The notes under the pieces are model-generated. The model was not told the DNA's origin and did no database searches. It saw only the letters and a list, made by a program, of their open reading frames with translations. The translations under genes and the position numbers were made by a program. 64,000 bases of DNA from a virus (Duplodnaviria > Caudoviricetes): the IMG/VR virus record IMGVR_UViG_3300025867_000005; one strand, written 5' to 3'. This document shows positions 5,819-58,744 of the stretch, piece by piece. Each line of letters begins with the position of its first letter. Positions within the stretch are counted from its first letter, which is position 1.

Positions 5819-6292
5819 ATGACAAAGAAGAAGCAGATTTTGGAAGACCTTAAGAATTGCAAGCCGGAACAGGTTGGCATATTTATCCGCATGTATGGGG
5901 AAATCGGAGAATCTATTGAATCCGTGGTATCGGAACTTCCTTCGTCTAAAGTTTCTTGGGCTTTGAAACAGGTATAAAACACGATCAAGAAGAATTCTTT
6001 GCCCCATCCGCCTCCGAAACCCGTGCCTGTTGTTGACGAAAAGGTCGAATTTAAAAAGAGTATCGAAAACTTTGCGTTTGATTTGTCAGATAAAGATTTC
6101 TTCTTTTCCAAAAGAGAATCAGTAAGAAAGATCATTGGTGGTTCCGGGTCTGTGGTATTTGATTTTGAAGGGAAGTCGTATAGGATCGATTGGAACGGAT
6201 ATTGGGAAAGTTCGGATTGGTATGAATACCAAATTTCTGATGTCCATGACCGTGGCGGATTGAAAATTTCAGGAACGAGATATATTGATTAG
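5819..6292 (+). pseudogene. gene interrupted by one in-frame TAA (5975-5977)
   Basis: ATG 5819 runs 52 codons to ...WALKQV-TAA-NTIKKN... and continues in the same frame to 6292. Confidence 0.65.
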
Positions 6293-6333
6293 ACTCTATT
6301 GACAGTCAGGAAGTCTTATGGTAATGTATCGAC

Positions 6334-6990
6334 ATGAAAATGAAATACCATAGGACTTTTCACCTTCCCTATAGCCTGACTGTTTCTGCGGATGATAAGA
6401 GGCTTCGTAATGATTCCCAGTTCTTTGGCATGGAAGTGGTTGTCACGGAGAAGATGGACGGAGAAAACACGACTGTCTATAAAGATGGACGCGCCCATGC
6501 CCGTAGCCTTGACGGGTTTGGGAAACCTTGGCAGACTTGGTTGATGAAAAATATTCAGGGATGGTCTTATGATATTCCTGAAGACTGGCGGGTTTGCGGT
6601 GAGGATCTTTATGCCCAGCATTCGATTCCCTATGTGTTCCCTTCACAAAAGTATTTTTTCCAGTGTTTCAGTATTTGGAACGAGAAGAATTCCTGCTTAT
6701 CTTGGGACGATACCGTTGAGTGGTGTAACCTTTTGGGCATCCTTCATGTTCCCGTCATTTTCCGTGGCATTTATGACAAAGACGCGATTATGGCTGCGTT
6801 TGAATGCTACAAAGAGAAAACTGGCAGAGAAACCGAAGGTTTTGTCGTTAGGAATACTGCGGGTTTCGGATATGATGATTTCGGTAAAAACGGAGCCAAG
6901 TTCGTCCGCGCCAATCATGTCCAGACCGACGAACACTGGACGGAAAACTGGGTTAAGAATGAAGTTAGCAACGATGCAAAGGGGTGGTAA
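6334..6990 (+). CDS. ATP-dependent RNA ligase (Rnl2-like nucleotidyltransferase)
   Basis: motif I TEKMDGENT, GEDLYAQHSI, motif IV EGFVVRN, motif V KFVR; own promoter at 6299. Confidence 0.88.
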   Translation: MKMKYHRTFHLPYSLTVSADDKRLRNDSQFFGMEVVVTEKMDGENTTVYKDGRAHARSLDGFGKPWQTWLMKNIQGWSYDIPEDWRVCGEDLYAQHSIPYVFPSQKYFFQCFSIWNEKNSCLSWDDTVEWCNLLGILHVPVIFRGIYDKDAIMAAFECYKEKTGRETEGFVVRNTAGFGYDDFGKNGAKFVRANHVQTDEHWTENWVKNEVSNDAKGW

Positions 6991-27241: not shown

Positions 27242-27525
27242 TTGACTAAAAAGAAGTAGTTTGCTAAAGTCTTCCCGTTTTTAAGGATTCCCGCGAACCA
27301 CAGGCTTTCAGATTAAGGATTTGTGTTTTATCTCTGTAAGTCTTAGAAACAGAAGTCTTTACGTATCATGATTTGAAAAACGGTTCGCGCAAGTCATAAA
27401 ATGGTGTAAATCTATTGTTTATGAAGATTGTTCTTTGAAAAGTTATTGATAAATGTTCATCTCATCATGGGTTCGCGGAAACGTGAAAATAAACCCGTGA
27501 TTATCAAGGCCTTAAGTGGCCTACC
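27242..27525 (+). promoter_or_regulatory. CRISPR leader (type I-C-like) with upstream phage sigma70 promoter
   Basis: TTGACT-N17-TAAAGT at 27242-70; CGCGAACC 27292-99 and GGTTCGCG 27382-89, 27470-77; IHF consensus TATCAAGGCCTTA 27502-14. Confidence 0.8.
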
Positions 27526-27953
27526 GTTGCGCCCCGCAGGGGCGCATGAATTGAAACCTGTTTTGGGCGATGCTTGGGGCATTCAACCGGAGTTGCGCCC
27601 CGCAGGGGCGCATGAATTGAAACACAAACGCGCCGTATGTCGCATCTGCTTTCCACGTTGCGCCCCGCAGGGGCGCATGAATTGAAACACAGGCAATACA
27701 GACAAGCCGGTGAAGCACAAGAAGTTGCGCCCCGCAGGGGCGCATGAATTGAAACGAAAAACGCCGGATATACATCTCTAAAAAGACAGTTGCGCCCCGC
27801 AGGGGCGCATGAATTGAAACAGGTTCTCCGGGGTTGGGAACGTCAGATGTGCGAGTTGCGCCCCGCAGGAGCGCATGAATTGAAACTGTGTTACAAATTC
27901 CCAAATCCCTTTAAGATCCTGTTGCGCCCCGCAGGGGGCGCATGAATTGAAAC
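27526..27953 (+). CRISPR. type I-C-like CRISPR array, 7 repeats / 6 spacers
   Basis: 32-bp repeat GTTGCGCCCCGCAGGGGCGCATGAATTGAAAC at 27526, 27592, 27657, 27724, 27789, 27855 (G>A), 27921 (+G); spacers 34, 33, 35, 33, 34, 34 bp. Confidence 0.97.
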
Positions 27954-28064
27954 AGGCAAGCGCAATTCAATTGGCAGAAGCCTACTTGAAGGCAAAATGG
28001 AAATGGAAGGATTAAGATGAACAATGTTCAAATTTTGTGAACACCACCTGTTCAAGGAGGAAAC

Positions 28065-28301
28065 ATGAAAGCAGAAATTACACTCGGAATGATGGCTCCG
28101 AAACCCAGTCGGCAACTTAGAGGGCAAGGCATCGACAAAGAAGCTTTGCGGATTATCGACGGGATTGAAGAAGCCAGACAATGGTTGTACCTCAACCATT
28201 TCATTTCTACGGCGGAAAACGACAAGATCGTCAAGAAGATTTTCCGTATGATTCAGAAAGAAGTTGACAAAGTCTCGGTAAAAAAGAATGAAGCCTATTG
28301 A
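28065..28301 (+). CDS. hypothetical protein
   Basis: AGGAGG RBS. Confidence 0.7.
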   Translation: MKAEITLGMMAPKPSRQLRGQGIDKEALRIIDGIEEARQWLYLNHFISTAENDKIVKKIFRMIQKEVDKVSVKKNEAY

Positions 28302-28369
28302 CATAGGTGCCAGAATTTAGTATCTTAGATGCGTTCAGATGGAATCACTTTAAACGAAGGAGCAATGAA

Positions 28370-29110
28370 ATGATGACAAATGCAATGTTTAATAAGTGTC
28401 TCAATGCTGATAAAAGAGTGTTCATGTCTCTTGATCCAGATGTTCAAGAGGCATTAAGGAATCATGCTGATCATATAGAACTTTTATATGAGGAAACAGA
28501 TATTTGGAAATATATAAAAGGACCATCATTTTGTAGTGTTCTCATATACAGAATTGATCCACGTAAGGAAAACGAACTGACAGAAGATCAGATTTCTCGG
28601 AAGCTTGGGAAATGCAAGAATGCAGAGATGAAAATTTTTGGGAACATGGACCCGGAGATTCAGGAGCTTATGCAGGAAGTTTTTGATCTCTATGGAGATT
28701 CGGCGATTGAAGCCGTTGGTCTCTCTGACGGAATGTGGAGTCTTATTACTCAGCTAGGCATATATACCTCCAAATTGATGCTGCATAAAGGAAGAATTTT
28801 CAGGATTTCTGAAAAATATCTAGAGACCATCAAGAAGGATATGATTAAAAAGGTTGAAGATGATGCCAAAATCGAAGCAATCAACAACGGCCACATCCTT
28901 TCCCCTGTTATTCTTGATATCAACTGCCAGAATTTTTGCTGTGCAGTCCCGAGAGTTGAAAACAACGGGGTTCGGTGTCAATATGATACGATCAGATATC
29001 TTGGCGATGCCAAATTGAGCAAACACTTTGTTAAAATCTGGTATGATCGAATTACCGGAAATCCCACCTTTGTCGAATTCGATATCAAGAAGTATACAAA
29101 TCCAGCTTGA
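28370..29110 (+). CDS. hypothetical protein with duplicated N-terminal domain
   Basis: KCLNADKRVFMSLDPDVQEAL / KCKNAEMKIFGNMDPEIQELM. Confidence 0.7.
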   Translation: MMTNAMFNKCLNADKRVFMSLDPDVQEALRNHADHIELLYEETDIWKYIKGPSFCSVLIYRIDPRKENELTEDQISRKLGKCKNAEMKIFGNMDPEIQELMQEVFDLYGDSAIEAVGLSDGMWSLITQLGIYTSKLMLHKGRIFRISEKYLETIKKDMIKKVEDDAKIEAINNGHILSPVILDINCQNFCCAVPRVENNGVRCQYDTIRYLGDAKLSKHFVKIWYDRITGNPTFVEFDIKKYTNPA

Positions 29111-29799: not shown

Positions 29800-30207
29800 A
29801 TGAGATGCTTTTCGTGTGGAAAAGGGGAATACAAAGAAATCGTCTTCGAAAACTACTTCATCACAGACCCTTTCTACGGGAAATATGTCGTTAAAGACGT
29901 AAGACTTAACAGGTGTACGGCTTGCGGAGATACGCTTTGGGATTCAAAGCCTGCACAGAAAAAGGAAGAAGCACTGGAGCGGATTAAAAAGACATTGCTT
30001 CTAGAAATGCCGGTTTCTGCTTTTGTTCCTGCCAAAGAAGCGGCCAAGATATTAGGAATGTCAATTCCTGCTTTCACCAGGAATCCAAAAGTGTTGCATA
30101 AGGTATTCTGGATTAAAAGGTTCGGGATCAAACTCTATTTAGAACGTTCTCTTCTTCTATTCGCCAAAACAGGGGACGGAAGATTCTATATAGGGAAAGG
30201 GGAATAA
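29800..30207 (+). CDS. YgiT/MqsA-type Zn-finger + HTH protein (antitoxin-like)
   Basis: MRCFSCGKG..VVKDV..RCTACGD; AKEAAKILGMS HTH. Confidence 0.7.
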   Translation: MRCFSCGKGEYKEIVFENYFITDPFYGKYVVKDVRLNRCTACGDTLWDSKPAQKKEEALERIKKTLLLEMPVSAFVPAKEAAKILGMSIPAFTRNPKVLHKVFWIKRFGIKLYLERSLLLFAKTGDGRFYIGKGE

Positions 30208-38375: not shown

Positions 38376-39185
38376 GTGAAAAATGATGCTTTTGGGGATA
38401 GGATGAAGGCTTATGAAGCCGCGACAGAAATCAATCTGATGCCGGGCCTTCCGGTTGTGGCAAGAATTGACGGAAGAAGCTTCCACACCTTCACACGGGG
38501 TATGAAAAGACCTTATGATGAAGGCATGTCAAACATGATGATAGATACCGCAAGGCGTCTTGCGATTGAAACGAATCCCGTCATTGCCTATACACAGAGT
38601 GATGAAATTACACTGATTTGGTACGCAGAGGGGAAATCACAGATTTGGTTTAACGGCAGGCACAGTAAGATGGTTTCTAACCTTGCCAGTCTCGCGACTC
38701 TGTATTTCTATCAGAGTTGTATGTGGCATAAACCCGACTATTGCACGAAGAACCCAAGCTTCGATTGTCGTGTATTCGGTGTCCCTACTAAGCAGGAAGC
38801 TTGCAACTGCCTGATCTGGAGAGAACAGGATGCGACGAAGAATGCCGTATCGATGTCGGCAAGGGCGTATTACAGCGACAAGGAATGTCACGGCAAAAAC
38901 GGAAGAGAAAAGCAGGAAATGCTTTTTCAGAAGGGTGTCAATTTCAACGATTATCCCCGTTTCTTCCGTAGAGGAACAATCCTTGTACCGGTTACAAAGA
39001 CGCACGGACGGGATGAATTGGATCTTTCTAAGCTGGGTCCGAAGCATCCTGCAAAGAACAATCCTAATTTCACCTTCGAACGGACGGAATGGGAATCTGT
39101 CGATTGGCCGGTTTTGACAAAGATCAGTAATCTCGTAGATATCATTTTTGACGGAGCGGTTCCGTGTACGAAAGCAAGCAAGTAA
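38376..39185 (+). CDS. tRNA(His) guanylyltransferase Thg1-like protein (3'-5' polymerase)
   Basis: GDRMKAYE, RIDGRSFHTFT, YTQSDEITL, FDCRVF, WREQDATKN. Confidence 0.92.
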   Translation: MKNDAFGDRMKAYEAATEINLMPGLPVVARIDGRSFHTFTRGMKRPYDEGMSNMMIDTARRLAIETNPVIAYTQSDEITLIWYAEGKSQIWFNGRHSKMVSNLASLATLYFYQSCMWHKPDYCTKNPSFDCRVFGVPTKQEACNCLIWREQDATKNAVSMSARAYYSDKECHGKNGREKQEMLFQKGVNFNDYPRFFRRGTILVPVTKTHGRDELDLSKLGPKHPAKNNPNFTFERTEWESVDWPVLTKISNLVDIIFDGAVPCTKASK

Positions 39186-43381: not shown

Positions 43382-45334
<1,953 letters not shown>

Positions 45335-49549: not shown

Positions 49550-49875
49550 TTCTGTTTCCAATACCTGCATCCGAAGCTTTGCATAACATAAAGACCCTTG
49601 TTGTCTGCTGGAATACATGAATTATCCATTTCCAAAGCCAATTGGATAATTTTACAGAGACCTCCAAGCTGCCAGCCGCCTTCTTTTACGATATCCGTGT
49701 GCCATTTGAGTCTCTTAAAGTGCTTGCAACTTCCACAACACTGAGGATCTTCTTGAATCAGAGATTCCCTAATCTCTTTTTCAGATTTCCCGTTTAGGAT
49801 ATCAGAACTACAGGAACGTTTTGTATTTAAAGAAAATCGGTCAAATTCTGCCTGAATGTCATCTTCCGTGATCAT
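49546..49875 (-). CDS. hypothetical protein
   Basis: ATGA overlap with pncB; CGSCKHF. Confidence 0.6.
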   Translation of the reverse strand: MITEDDIQAEFDRFSLNTKRSCSSDILNGKSEKEIRESLIQEDPQCCGSCKHFKRLKWHTDIVKEGGWQLGGLCKIIQLALEMDNSCIPADNKGLYVMQSFGCRYWKQK

Positions 49876-51014
49876 AGATGAATCCCGTTTTTTGCTTTCA
49901 ACCAATTGACATATGCCTGATTTTCGCACATTCCCTTACCGGCATCATCGCTGATTTTGGCAACAGCTTGGCCGTCGAATTCCAGCATCTTCATAACGAT
50001 GTTCAATCCCTTGACACACAGATCATAGGTAAAGTCAGTTCCGATTCCGAAATAGATGTTACGGAACTTGCCGTAAAACACATCCACAAGCTTGAAGACC
50101 ATTTCCGGATTGAGGCTGTCGCTGAAACAGACATCCTTCGTACGGGGATCGATGCCCATGTTTTCGTAATGACCTAACACCTTGCTTCCCCAAGAGAAGG
50201 GACAACCGCTGTCATGCCGGACACCCGTATATAGGTTGGAAAGTTCCTCGTCGAATTCGCGAAGAAAGCAATCAATACCGAGGCAATCCGTCAAGGCAAT
50301 GCCGTACTTACCCTTGTATTCGTTTGCCCAAGCCCGAAGGATGAATGCCTGAGTCTTGGTAATGTCGGGGCTTAGAACCTGTCCTGCTTCTTCGATTTCA
50401 TGCGCCATAGTCCCGATACAAGGATAACCGCGTTCAATGGCCAAACCGATATTGCTGGTCCCGACGAAAGCATTCAAGTTCTTTGCAAGGTAATCCGTTA
50501 CCTCTGTATGCCAAGCCTTGCTGAAAGCCCTTCTGGTTCCCATTTCAATAAACCCGATTCCCTTTATAGGAAGCCCGTTGTAAAGCCTGACTTTCTTTTC
50601 AAGGCGCTTCCTGCCGTCAACAAGGATATCCTTGTTATTCGTCCAGCCGTTACGATCCGACCAAGCTTCCTGAATCTTGGAAAGGCTGTCGATTTCAAAC
50701 CAAGTCGCGTCTTCTACGTAACCACTGACACGATAGTCAAGATCCCCGTTCTTGTCTCTGCAAACAACATCACATGGCGAAAGGTTCATAAAGGAATCAG
50801 CATCGGCGATTCCCTTCCCTTTTAGGTATTCTGCCTGTCCCTTTGCACAGATCATAGGAGGAAGCTGCGGACCTGTGGGAAACAGATCGGCAAGACAGCC
50901 CAGCTTCTGGTCGCCGCGACTTTTGAAACCGAAAGTACAGGTATGCTTCCTGACTCCGAATTGCCGACGATAGACATTTGCCATCGTCGCCTTGTAAAAA
51001 TCCTGTCTGTTCAT
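49872..51014 (-). CDS. pncB: nicotinate phosphoribosyltransferase
   Basis: DFYKATM, EMGTRRAFS, GTSN, GTMAHE, ALTD, GVRHDSG, FSDSL, FGIGT, NIVMKM, KISDDAGK. Confidence 0.93.
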   Translation of the reverse strand: MNRQDFYKATMANVYRRQFGVRKHTCTFGFKSRGDQKLGCLADLFPTGPQLPPMICAKGQAEYLKGKGIADADSFMNLSPCDVVCRDKNGDLDYRVSGYVEDATWFEIDSLSKIQEAWSDRNGWTNNKDILVDGRKRLEKKVRLYNGLPIKGIGFIEMGTRRAFSKAWHTEVTDYLAKNLNAFVGTSNIGLAIERGYPCIGTMAHEIEEAGQVLSPDITKTQAFILRAWANEYKGKYGIALTDCLGIDCFLREFDEELSNLYTGVRHDSGCPFSWGSKVLGHYENMGIDPRTKDVCFSDSLNPEMVFKLVDVFYGKFRNIYFGIGTDFTYDLCVKGLNIVMKMLEFDGQAVAKISDDAGKGMCENQAYVNWLKAKNGIHL

Positions 51015-57535: not shown

Positions 57536-58693
57536 TTATTTCGCGGAAAACGTAATCCGGTTTCCGTGATGTACAATAGTTTGTCTCCCTGCTTTTTTTG
57601 TCAGATACGAAGCGATTTTCTTCATTGTCTCATAACTGTAATCTTCTTCTTCCGGATCGAAGTCCCGAAAAAGGCTGACAGTTTTGACATATTTCCTAAG
57701 AATGAATTCGTGTTCAGAAGGTTTCATTCTCATGTGGTTGAATTTTGTCATTATTTTGATCAAGTAATCATCATAGACTTCTTTGCTAACATATTCTTCG
57801 AATCGGTTTAGGATGTCGAAATAGACTTCTTTCATCTTTTTCCACTGCTTGGTTTCTGTTTGAAGATAGATACATAATTCCTTACCTACTTCAACGGAAT
57901 ACCCTAGCCAATAACAAAGACCATGTTTCTCACGGATGTTTTCAATAAGCGGACTGAAGAACCCGTCAGACATCAGATTCGCGAAGAATCTAAGGCTCAA
58001 TTCAGTGAAACCGCAGTTCTTCCTGTTGATTTTAGACAGCAGTATTTGGAAATCAGACTGTCTCTTTACTTCTGAAGTTACGGTTTTGTTTACGAATTTA
58101 GCAGAAAGGACCCTCTCTTTCACATCGGGTTCACAGACTTCAATCTCCCAATGAAGGGATGAAAACAAATGCTTCACGCTCTTTCCGCCTACAAAAACTA
58201 CACACGTAGGTTTAGAAAAATGTTCCACGTAGAACATTTTGAACTTCTTATATGTTATTGCTTCGATATCTTCTCGGCTACCGATAGGGCCGTCATACCC
58301 GAAAATCTCTCGATTTGCCCTTATCTGTATATTATAGTCATTGATAAATGAATCATACTCTTGCAGAATGATAGACTTTTCTTCTTCAAACTCTTTTTCA
58401 GTAGGGACGTAAGACAGACATTCTTTAACATAGTCCCGTGCGAACCTTGCGATTTCAAGATCCCCGCTTCTGCAATAGAAACAAACGCAATCATCATCTG
58501 TAAAGGCATTGGTTTCGATATTGTAGATGTTGATTACCTTCCTGAATTCCTTTTCCTTCTTGCACTTCAGATGTTCCGCAAGATGGCTGATACCACGGAA
58601 TCCTTTCTTTTCAAAAAGGCCTCCCGCTTTGTAAATGGCATAAATGGCGGCGAAACCGCTTGATTCTTCTTCAAAAAACACTCCTGATTCCAT
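57536..58693 (-). CDS. M16-family (insulinase) Zn peptidase
   Basis: GISHLAEHL (HxxEH), NAFT, EKSIILQE, IREKHGLCY. Confidence 0.9.
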   Translation of the reverse strand: MESGVFFEEESSGFAAIYAIYKAGGLFEKKGFRGISHLAEHLKCKKEKEFRKVINIYNIETNAFTDDDCVCFYCRSGDLEIARFARDYVKECLSYVPTEKEFEEEKSIILQEYDSFINDYNIQIRANREIFGYDGPIGSREDIEAITYKKFKMFYVEHFSKPTCVVFVGGKSVKHLFSSLHWEIEVCEPDVKERVLSAKFVNKTVTSEVKRQSDFQILLSKINRKNCGFTELSLRFFANLMSDGFFSPLIENIREKHGLCYWLGYSVEVGKELCIYLQTETKQWKKMKEVYFDILNRFEEYVSKEVYDDYLIKIMTKFNHMRMKPSEHEFILRKYVKTVSLFRDFDPEEEDYSYETMKKIASYLTKKAGRQTIVHHGNRITFSAK

Positions 58694-58744
58694 TACTTTA
58701 TTCCTTTTTTTGATATTTGACGCAAAGATACAGAGGGAAAACAC

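Follow-up and report, generated by a model that had tools for sequence, protein, structure and literature searches.

An orphan type I-C-like CRISPR array in a jumbo phage lies at a locus where related phage contigs carry cas genes

CRISPR arrays without cas genes, as well as type I-C systems without an adaptation module, are already known from huge phages (PMC11656645; PMC7162821). Al-Shayeb et al. (2020; Nature 578:425; PMC7162821) reported, for huge phages, arrays without any cas gene as well as type I-C variants devoid of Cas1 and Cas2, the median array having six repeats. In viral mini-arrays, just one or two spacers, mostly directed against related viruses, lie between repeats that are the same as in the host (Medvedeva et al., 2019; reviewed in PMC11656645). 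Lastly, phages use repeats as decoys: RacrIC1 is a solitary-repeat RNA anti-CRISPR of type I-C (Camara-Wilpert et al., 2023; PMC10651486), whose description does not mention tRNA in its main text, and a further class of regulatory arrays, the Cracr arrays, has been reported, I-C ones included (10.1101/2024.10.29.618823). Here, we analyze a cas-less array in a phage of the class Caudoviricetes (IMG/VR record IMGVR_UViG_3300025867_000005), based on a stretch of 64,000 nt (in the following, the window), which corresponds to bases 228511–292510 of the 304,025-bp record. Positions are those of the window, unless they are marked as genome positions. Because syntenic phage contigs have cas7, cas5, cas8-like and cas3 genes at this very locus, next to a homologous leader and near-identical repeats, we consider with moderate confidence that it is the orphan array of a type I-C-variant system belonging to this jumbo-phage lineage, and that its CRISPR RNAs (crRNAs) would be loaded in trans.

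The array (Table 1) comprises seven copies of the 32-nt repeat GTTGCGCCCCGCAGGGGCGCATGAATTGAAAC on the plus strand, separated by six spacers that are all unique. Repeats 1–5 are identical, and mutations are confined to the two leader-distal copies. A reading of the window by eye, referred to as the original prediction below, had described precisely this arrangement, and its coordinates were exact. Since identical 32-mers recur every 65–67 nt, the array is real rather than a chance pattern. It has the general hallmarks of CRISPR arrays, namely at least three near-identical direct repeats of 23–55 nt and unique spacers of similar length, and also an AT-rich leader, conserved among relatives, together with degenerate distal repeats. 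The repeat is predicted to fold into a GC stem of 7–8 bp with a 3-nt loop (about −16 kcal/mol); the 3′ tail is unpaired and ends in ATTGAAAC. Tandem Repeats Finder does not report the array, because its units have only the repeat halves in common, and an Rfam search over positions 27000–28400 returned neither CRISPR-DR nor another credible family, as no model fits this repeat.

No cas genes were found in the genome. A six-frame search of the whole 304,025-bp record with hidden Markov models (HMMs) for Cas5d, Cas7, Csd1, Cas1 and Cas3-HD yielded no match at E ≤ 1, and tblastn searches of this genome with the Cas7, Cas5, Cas8-like and Cas3 proteins of related phages returned noise only. The original prediction had recognized no cas open reading frame in the 64 kb, and had named a complete cas operon elsewhere in the genome as the finding that would speak against it; by both methods, the absence extends to the entire record.

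The situation is different in related phages. A metagenome scan for the repeat stem and tail gave 26 loci, several of which combine arrays with cas genes. The contig L189 (identical to L194) has nearly the same repeat, with the loop ACGC instead of GCA; after its array come, in the same orientation, genes for Cas7 (PF05107, E = 4e-36), Cas5 (PF09704) and a protein of 615–625 aa without a family. Exactly the same large protein is encoded in L193, where it is followed by a 760-aa Cas3, a second leader, a three-repeat array and small genes. Five small genes of L193 share 35–78% protein identity with genome positions 256575–260575 and occur in the same order; this series is headed by the counterpart of the 78-aa gene that lies 3′ of the array studied here (71% identity over 72 aa in tblastn, L193:4930–5163 against genome 256575–256790). 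Amid these syntenic genes, L193 also contains an RNA_ligase (PF09414) gene (6137–6751), for which tblastn found no match in this genome. L177 has the same repeat at least nine times and encodes a crAss001_48-like protein; its flank matches genome positions 254000–254647 and the leader at 74–88% nucleotide identity. The same four-gene operon adjoins a leader and an array in L190, L191 and L192, so that the layout of the relatives reads leader-array-cas7-cas5-Cas8c-like-cas3(HD-helicase)-leader-array. Neither cas1, cas2 and cas4 nor cas6 were seen in their contigs. In the phage studied here, a leader of the upstream type and one array are followed directly by the gene that follows the downstream array in L193.

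There is also a second cas-less lineage (L032, identical to G001:C20, as well as L164, L165 and L184), which has only a three-unit array at the locus and whose flanking and tRNA-cluster DNA is 72–89% identical to this genome. Cas-less and cas-bearing forms occur side by side in one sample series, Ga0172381, which holds the cas-less L165 and the cas-bearing L177 and L189. The Cas7 clade of the relatives was not recovered in IMG/VR with a search that rested on two peptide patterns, which is not proof of its absence there.

The cas genes of the relatives resemble those of type I-C systems to different degrees. The profile of their Cas7 matches the Cas7 structures of I-C Cascade (7kha_B, 9jhb_C and 8g9s_B) with an E-value of 1.5e-22, as compared to 2.6e-6 for I-B Csh2, and Csd2 ranked first among the NCBIfam models, at a score below its curated cut-off (87.8 vs 182 bits). 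Their Cas5 is recognized only generically, with the I-B model outscoring the I-C model, and their Cas3 by a weak HD match and a helicase core. The large protein has no match among HMMs or PDB sequences. Its AlphaFold model is poor (mean predicted local distance difference test score, pLDDT, of 57, from a shallow alignment); the top eight Foldseek matches to it are all chains of type I-C Cascade (best E = 1e-3), of which we take the long ones to be Cas8c, the large subunit, while a Cas11c-sized chain matches the C-terminal helical bundle of the model. Given the poor model (pLDDT 57), this is only a weak hint that the protein may be a Cas8c-like large subunit. The operon as a whole appears to be of I-C character and fits the ‘type I-C variant’ published for huge phages.

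The repeat itself is of the I-C class. In its length, its internal GC hairpin and its 3′ tail, it is like the repeats of canonical I-C systems (Desulfovibrio vulgaris and Neisseria lactamica Cascade; PDB 7KHA and 8G9S), to which the relatives are also similar in that their Cas7 is closest to I-C Cas7 and in that no cas6 was seen. Across 66 distinct units of the repeat family, stem pairs 3–5 vary in a compensatory manner among G-C, A-U and C-G, whereas the tail is constant. This tail, GCATGAATTGAAAC, also occurs in an array of Provencibacterium located directly 3′ of cas4-cas1-cas2, with a Cas7 gene upstream, i.e. in a canonical I-C layout, and we therefore regard it as a genuine I-C handle. 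The type I-C call of the original prediction, based on the repeat and spacers of about 34 nt, is thus upheld by length, hairpin and a tail shared with a canonical locus. The relatives differ from canonical systems in their gene order (array-cas7-cas5-cas8-cas3, as opposed to cas3-cas5-cas8-cas7-cas4-cas1-cas2-array), in a large subunit that is unrecognizable by sequence and in the lack of an adaptation module, and the phage studied here differs further in having no cas genes. Among the closest described systems are those of Al-Shayeb et al., with which the present ones share the jumbo genome (>200 kb), the compact array and, in the relatives, the dependence on Cas5, with no Cas6, Cas1, Cas2 or Cas4 seen. 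Unlike there, cas-less and cas-bearing states are found here at one syntenic locus of related phages, the relatives’ helicase with its weak HD match looks like Cas3 and not like a replacement helicase, and no host with similar repeats was found.

The leader connects the array both with the cas-bearing loci and with a second locus in the same genome. It is about 78% identical over 177 nt to the leader of L192, which precedes an array and cas7 there, and 74% identical to that of L177. Its promoter, its three boxes (GGTTCGCG or CGCGAACC) and a repeat-proximal TATCAAGG.CTTAAGTG.CCTACC block recur in L192, and the boxes and the repeat-proximal motif are kept in L191 as well. The promoter-like motif of the class TTGACA-N17-TAAAGT has nine exact sites in the genome (seven on the plus and two on the minus strand), as compared to 0.05 expected from shuffled sequences; permitting one mismatch in the first hexamer raises this number to 11. 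The extended form TTGACA-N14-TGnTAAAGT is common to most of these sites, and two of them lie in the tRNA cluster. Other sites of this motif are located, for instance, at genome positions 192098, 193404, 228506 and 249160. Besides the array leader and the tRNA cluster, the motif is also present in leaders and cas7 promoters of related contigs.

This cluster of 29 tRNAs harbors solitary I-C-like repeat units between its genes (genome 192559–192590, 194324–194353, 198984–199015 and 202005–202036) and a fifth, divergent one (genome 194186–194216). All start with GTT and end with ATGAATTGAAA(C/T), and in between lies a stem that differs from unit to unit yet still pairs. As in this genome, the homologous unit of the relative L162/L163 is placed between tRNA-Gly(UCC) and tRNA-Ile(GAU), and the tRNA clusters of both cas-less phages keep solitary units with compensatory stems. 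Like RacrIC1, these units are phage-encoded mimics of an I-C repeat, with the same tail as the array and variable stems; they reside inside a tRNA operon, whereas the main text on RacrIC1 has no mention of tRNA. Together, the promoter motif, the intact leader and repeats, the covariation of the stems and the solitary units argue for continued selection on recognition by Cas5/Cas7-type machinery.

Table 1. Positions of the array, its leader elements and the adjacent gene in the window
Feature	Position	Strand	Remarks
Leader, 298 nt	27228–27525	+	Conserved in relatives
Promoter-like site TTGACT-N17-TAAAGT, TGC before second hexamer	27242–27270	+	At leader start; promoter scan; aligns with motif in L192 leader
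Leader box CGCGAACC	27292–27299	+	
Leader box GGTTCGCG	27382–27389	+	
Leader box GGTTCGCG	27470–27477	+	
IHF-like site TATCAAGGCCTTA	27502–27514	+	11 nt 5′ of repeat 1
CRISPR array, 7 repeats and 6 spacers	27526–27953	+	Repeat and spacer listing
Repeat 1, 32 nt	27526–27557	+	Consensus
Spacer S1, 34 nt	27558–27591	+	Seed without IMG/VR match
Repeat 2	27592–27623	+	Consensus
Spacer S2, 33 nt	27624–27656	+	Seed without IMG/VR match
Repeat 3	27657–27688	+	Consensus
Spacer S3, 35 nt	27689–27723	+	Seed without IMG/VR match
Repeat 4	27724–27755	+	Consensus
Spacer S4, 33 nt	27756–27788	+	Seed without IMG/VR match
Repeat 5	27789–27820	+	Consensus
Spacer S5, 34 nt	27821–27854	+	Seed without IMG/VR match
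Repeat 6	27855–27886	+	One G>A in 3′ stem arm; fold weakened to −9.8 kcal/mol
Spacer S6, 34 nt	27887–27920	+	
Repeat 7, terminal, 33 nt	27921–27953	+	One extra G
First gene 3′ of array, 78 aa	28065–28301	+	No significant Pfam family

If the array belongs to a system of this phage lineage, the most likely history is that this phage has lost the cas operon, for instance through recombination of the two direct arrays that flank it, which would yield exactly the structure seen in this genome. The promoter-like site at 27242 would then transcribe leader and array, and a Cas5 endonuclease provided in trans, be it by a compatible I-C system of the host or by a co-infecting cas-bearing relative, would cut each repeat after its hairpin. 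The resulting crRNAs would consist of the 11-nt tag UGAAUUGAAAC, a guide of 33–35 nt and a 3′ hairpin; for the cleavage site and the tag length, we follow what Nam and Garside reportedly found in 2012. Loaded into Cascade, they may direct Cas3 to DNA with a 5′-TTC protospacer-adjacent motif (PAM), most likely that of unsampled competitor phages, and since each processed repeat would tie up Cas5 and Cas7, a partial decoy effect could arise at no extra cost.

Which DNA the guides might address was investigated in several sequence sets. None of the spacers matches the phage’s own genome, which extends to the whole genome what the original prediction had noted for the window. A blastn search of the whole array, and hence of all six spacers, against INPHARED gave no match, and neither did the 20-nt seeds of S1–S5 in IMG/VR. 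The fetched relatives contain no match to any of the spacers, and a PAM-anchored test for partial matches, run on the cas loci of the relatives and on the canonical I-C locus of Oscillospirales, remained at chance level (at most 18 of 30 positions). The relatives have no spacers in common with this array, and their spacers have no significant match in this genome.

One spacer with a target is found in the wider, gut-type part of the repeat family: the L187/L188 spacer matches L174:424–451 at 27 of 28 nt and L178:2526–2552 at 25 of 27 nt, with TTC directly 5′ of the protospacer in both. What the spacer matches there is a split DnaE (PHP and Pol III alpha) gene, at its 3′ end and next to a NUMOD4/HNH homing endonuclease. 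As this combines the expected I-C PAM with an essential phage gene, it indicates that inter-phage targeting occurs in the wider repeat family. The proposal that the array is aimed at competing phages, and the TTC motif suggested as a check of it, therefore find a counterpart in this one spacer, by analogy, and none in the six spacers of the array itself, which have no protospacer in the searched sets. A similar split applies to the comparison with viral mini-arrays (in the sense of Faure, 2019, and Medvedeva, 2019). The likeness lies in a cas-less array within a virus and in a wider family with one spacer against the DnaE of a related phage, next to a TTC PAM; the difference lies in the six spacers of this array, in repeats that are not identical to a host array in the genomes scanned, and in spacers without matches to related or competing viruses in the sets listed above.

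The wider family shows some peculiarities of its own. It includes low-GC contigs (33–37%) of up to 234 kb (L148:5540–6008; L166–L169, L171, L173–L176, L178–L180 and L182–L188), one of them labelled human gut. Their arrays mix at least three repeat variants with different, compensatory stems (GCGCCC, GCATCC and GCACTC) and one common tail, and in several contigs, genes for Cas7 and Cas3 lie next to the arrays or between them. L170 and L172 (GC 56%) contain 15 irregularly spaced repeat-like units with gaps of 27–354 nt, variable loops and tails of the form GTG(G/A)ATTGAAAC; a Cas7 homologue is present on the same contig, and the whole resembles a group of solitary or mini-units more than a regular array.

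Several points weigh against reading the array as an orphan of the lineage’s own system with guides loaded in trans. As the searched sets contain no target for any of the six spacers, a guide function is only putative. No supplier of Cas proteins was found, and a bacterial array with this stem turned up neither among the GTDB representatives, which were searched by pattern, nor in 301 Paludibacteraceae genomes. The cas-bearing contigs are short (4–8 kb), and only L193 and L177 are linked to this phage lineage by synteny. Furthermore, the cas operon may have been gained in the other lineages instead of lost here, and the three-repeat form found in independent assemblies (see below) could reflect instability of the array.

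The strongest of the alternatives, which we consider possible yet unlikely, is that the phage captured or mimics an I-C array of its host, whose Cascade and Cas3 would load the crRNAs and act against competing phages or host genes. This concept is published (PMC7162821; PMC11656645), and canonical I-C loci (cas4-cas1-cas2-array, with Cas7 upstream) in metagenome-assembled genomes (MAGs) of Oscillospirales have the tail ATGAATTGAAAC. The leader also retains an IHF-like site and phased boxes. Moreover, the spacer sets of the relatives are wholly different and no cas1, cas2 or cas4 was seen in any of them, so that new spacers probably require the adaptation module of a host. To this extent, the idea of host Cas involvement survives as a partial truth.

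Yet, the search for such a host argues against an origin there. Among 185,579 species genomes (one each), the pattern GTTGC..GCATGAATTGAAAC revealed no array with the stem of this phage, in an exact-match search that misses variants at its fixed positions. True multi-repeat arrays with the tail occurred in this set only in MAGs of Oscillospirales (Provencibacterium, Anaerotruncus, Caproicibacter and unnamed Clostridia), and their stems, GCCCCC/GGGGGC, are unlike that of the phage. In IMG/VR, the matches listed for a loose repeat pattern were mostly one chance coding match, and a stricter pattern left only L148. The stem of this repeat was thus found only in phage-like DNA, as were all near-identical repeats; leader and flanks are homologous to a phage-borne cas locus and not to any cellular locus seen, and no protospacer was found. 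Host Cascade as origin and supplier, as implied by the original prediction, is not supported in this form, because the relatives have their own cas operon at the locus, although host Cas proteins may still be used. Likewise, the expectation that the repeat should identify the host was disappointed, as no bacterial array with its stem was found in the 185,579 species genomes.

Other routes to a host did not lead further. The 301 Paludibacteraceae genomes contain the handle only as singleton chance matches. The Cas7 of the Paludibacteraceae bin G001 was considered as a possible supplier and rejected: it is located on a contig of 31% GC, has no tblastn match to the phage-type Cas7 and no such repeats nearby. 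Binning was rejected as host evidence, too, since contigs related to this phage are in a Paludibacteraceae MAG, yet proteins of a cas-bearing relative are labelled Candidatus Omnitrophica. The NAD-dependent ligase of the phage is at most 33% identical to that of any cultured phage, and its relatives therefore give no hint of a host.

Somewhat less probable still, in our estimate, is a CRISPR conflict among phages that works without the system of the host. In such a conflict, the cas-less phage would free-ride on, or jam, the Cas7-Cas5-Cas8-Cas3 of sympatric relatives, with decoy repeats in its tRNA operon, and producers and cheaters would coexist in one habitat.

We regard it as improbable that the array is a decaying and functionless remnant of a recently deleted cas operon. 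The genome has no cas genes and the array no targets found, its two distal repeats are mutated, and the independent assemblies contain a form that is short of four units, all of which would be expected of decay. However, there are no differences among five of the repeats, and leader, boxes and promoter are intact, while the flanking genes differ by 20–30% from those of the relatives. The second cas-less lineage (L032/L164/L165/L184) also keeps an array at the locus, and both cas-less phages preserve solitary units with compensatory stems within their tRNA clusters, which argues for ongoing selection for being recognized by Cas proteins.

A purely regulatory role appears quite improbable. In this scenario, the array would be an RNA decoy or regulator of the Racr or Cracr kind, with repeats that titrate Cas5 and Cas7 or guides that repress the cas promoters of hosts or rival phages. 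Both principles have precedents, as a type I-C Racr is validated (PMC10651486) and Cracr arrays, I-C included, are reported (10.1101/2024.10.29.618823). The four to five solitary units between the tRNA genes of this genome, which share the promoter class of the array, are in line with a decoy, as is the unit of L162, which fills the entire gap between tRNA-Gly and tRNA-Ile, ends 2 nt before the next tRNA and leaves no room for a guide. The array itself fits less well: it is not a single unit as in Racr, but a regular series of seven repeats with spacers and a leader, which pure titration does not need. Nor does it resemble a Cracr array, in which short pseudo-spacers are complementary to a cas or CreT promoter on the PAM-proximal side, since its spacers have the canonical length of 33–35 nt (vs 21–24 nt for Cracr pseudo-spacers), and the PAM-anchored search found no partial match above chance around the cas promoters, be it those of the relatives or those of the Oscillospirales locus.

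Finally, a host array misjoined into the phage contig, for which nothing speaks beyond the record being a metagenomic assembly, is highly implausible, as two independent Logan assemblies (97 kb and 302,860 bp) have the array in the same phage contig, between the same flanks and at the contig’s own depth, and in syntenic relatives, too, this place is occupied by arrays. The chimeric host insert that the original prediction had considered as a possible objection was accordingly not seen. The phage sequence is present in two activated-sludge runs. Both Logan contigs join position 27525 to 27789 and thereby skip four repeat-spacer units (27526–27788), which leaves a three-repeat form. Because the five identical 32-mers exceed the k of 31 used by Logan, this gap is most likely a collapse of the identical repeats, but a shorter natural allele with three repeats may also lie behind it. 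The record itself is rated 100% complete by CheckV. Its termini (1–400 and 303,600–304,025) both fall into the same tandem-repeat coding region (period about 90 nt, identity 83–92%); we therefore assume that the assembly broke in this repeat and that little is missing. This is also the likely reason why IMG/VR lists a complete genome as ‘linear’.

The genes around the array are small open reading frames, none of which has a family match. Further downstream, a 135-aa protein (29800–30207), encoded 1.8 kb 3′ of the array, has a weak, sub-threshold match to an MqsA-type antitoxin. Auxiliary genes of the window encode a Thg1-like tRNA-His guanylyltransferase (38376–39185), an NAD-dependent DNA ligase with a BRCT domain (43397–45334), a protein of the nicotinate phosphoribosyltransferase family (49872–51014) and an M16 peptidase (57536–58744).

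What is new about this locus is the occurrence of cas-bearing and cas-less states at one syntenic position, with a repeat that points to a phage system and not to a host, and an array that has its promoter class in common with a tRNA operon holding solitary repeat units. It also advises caution, as a phage-borne repeat alone is a poor basis for host prediction. Cas-less arrays in huge phages are usually taken as a means to hijack host Cas proteins. Here, both repeat and leader have their nearest relatives in phage-borne cas loci and not in host loci. The Cas proteins could therefore be supplied by another phage instead, with consequences for the logic of the conflict. With the same leader and repeat in both, the cas-bearing and cas-less relatives form a natural pair, which bears on a possible function of such arrays in trans, on a possible uptake of spacers by Cas1-Cas2 of the host and on a possible decoy role of solitary repeats in tRNA operons.

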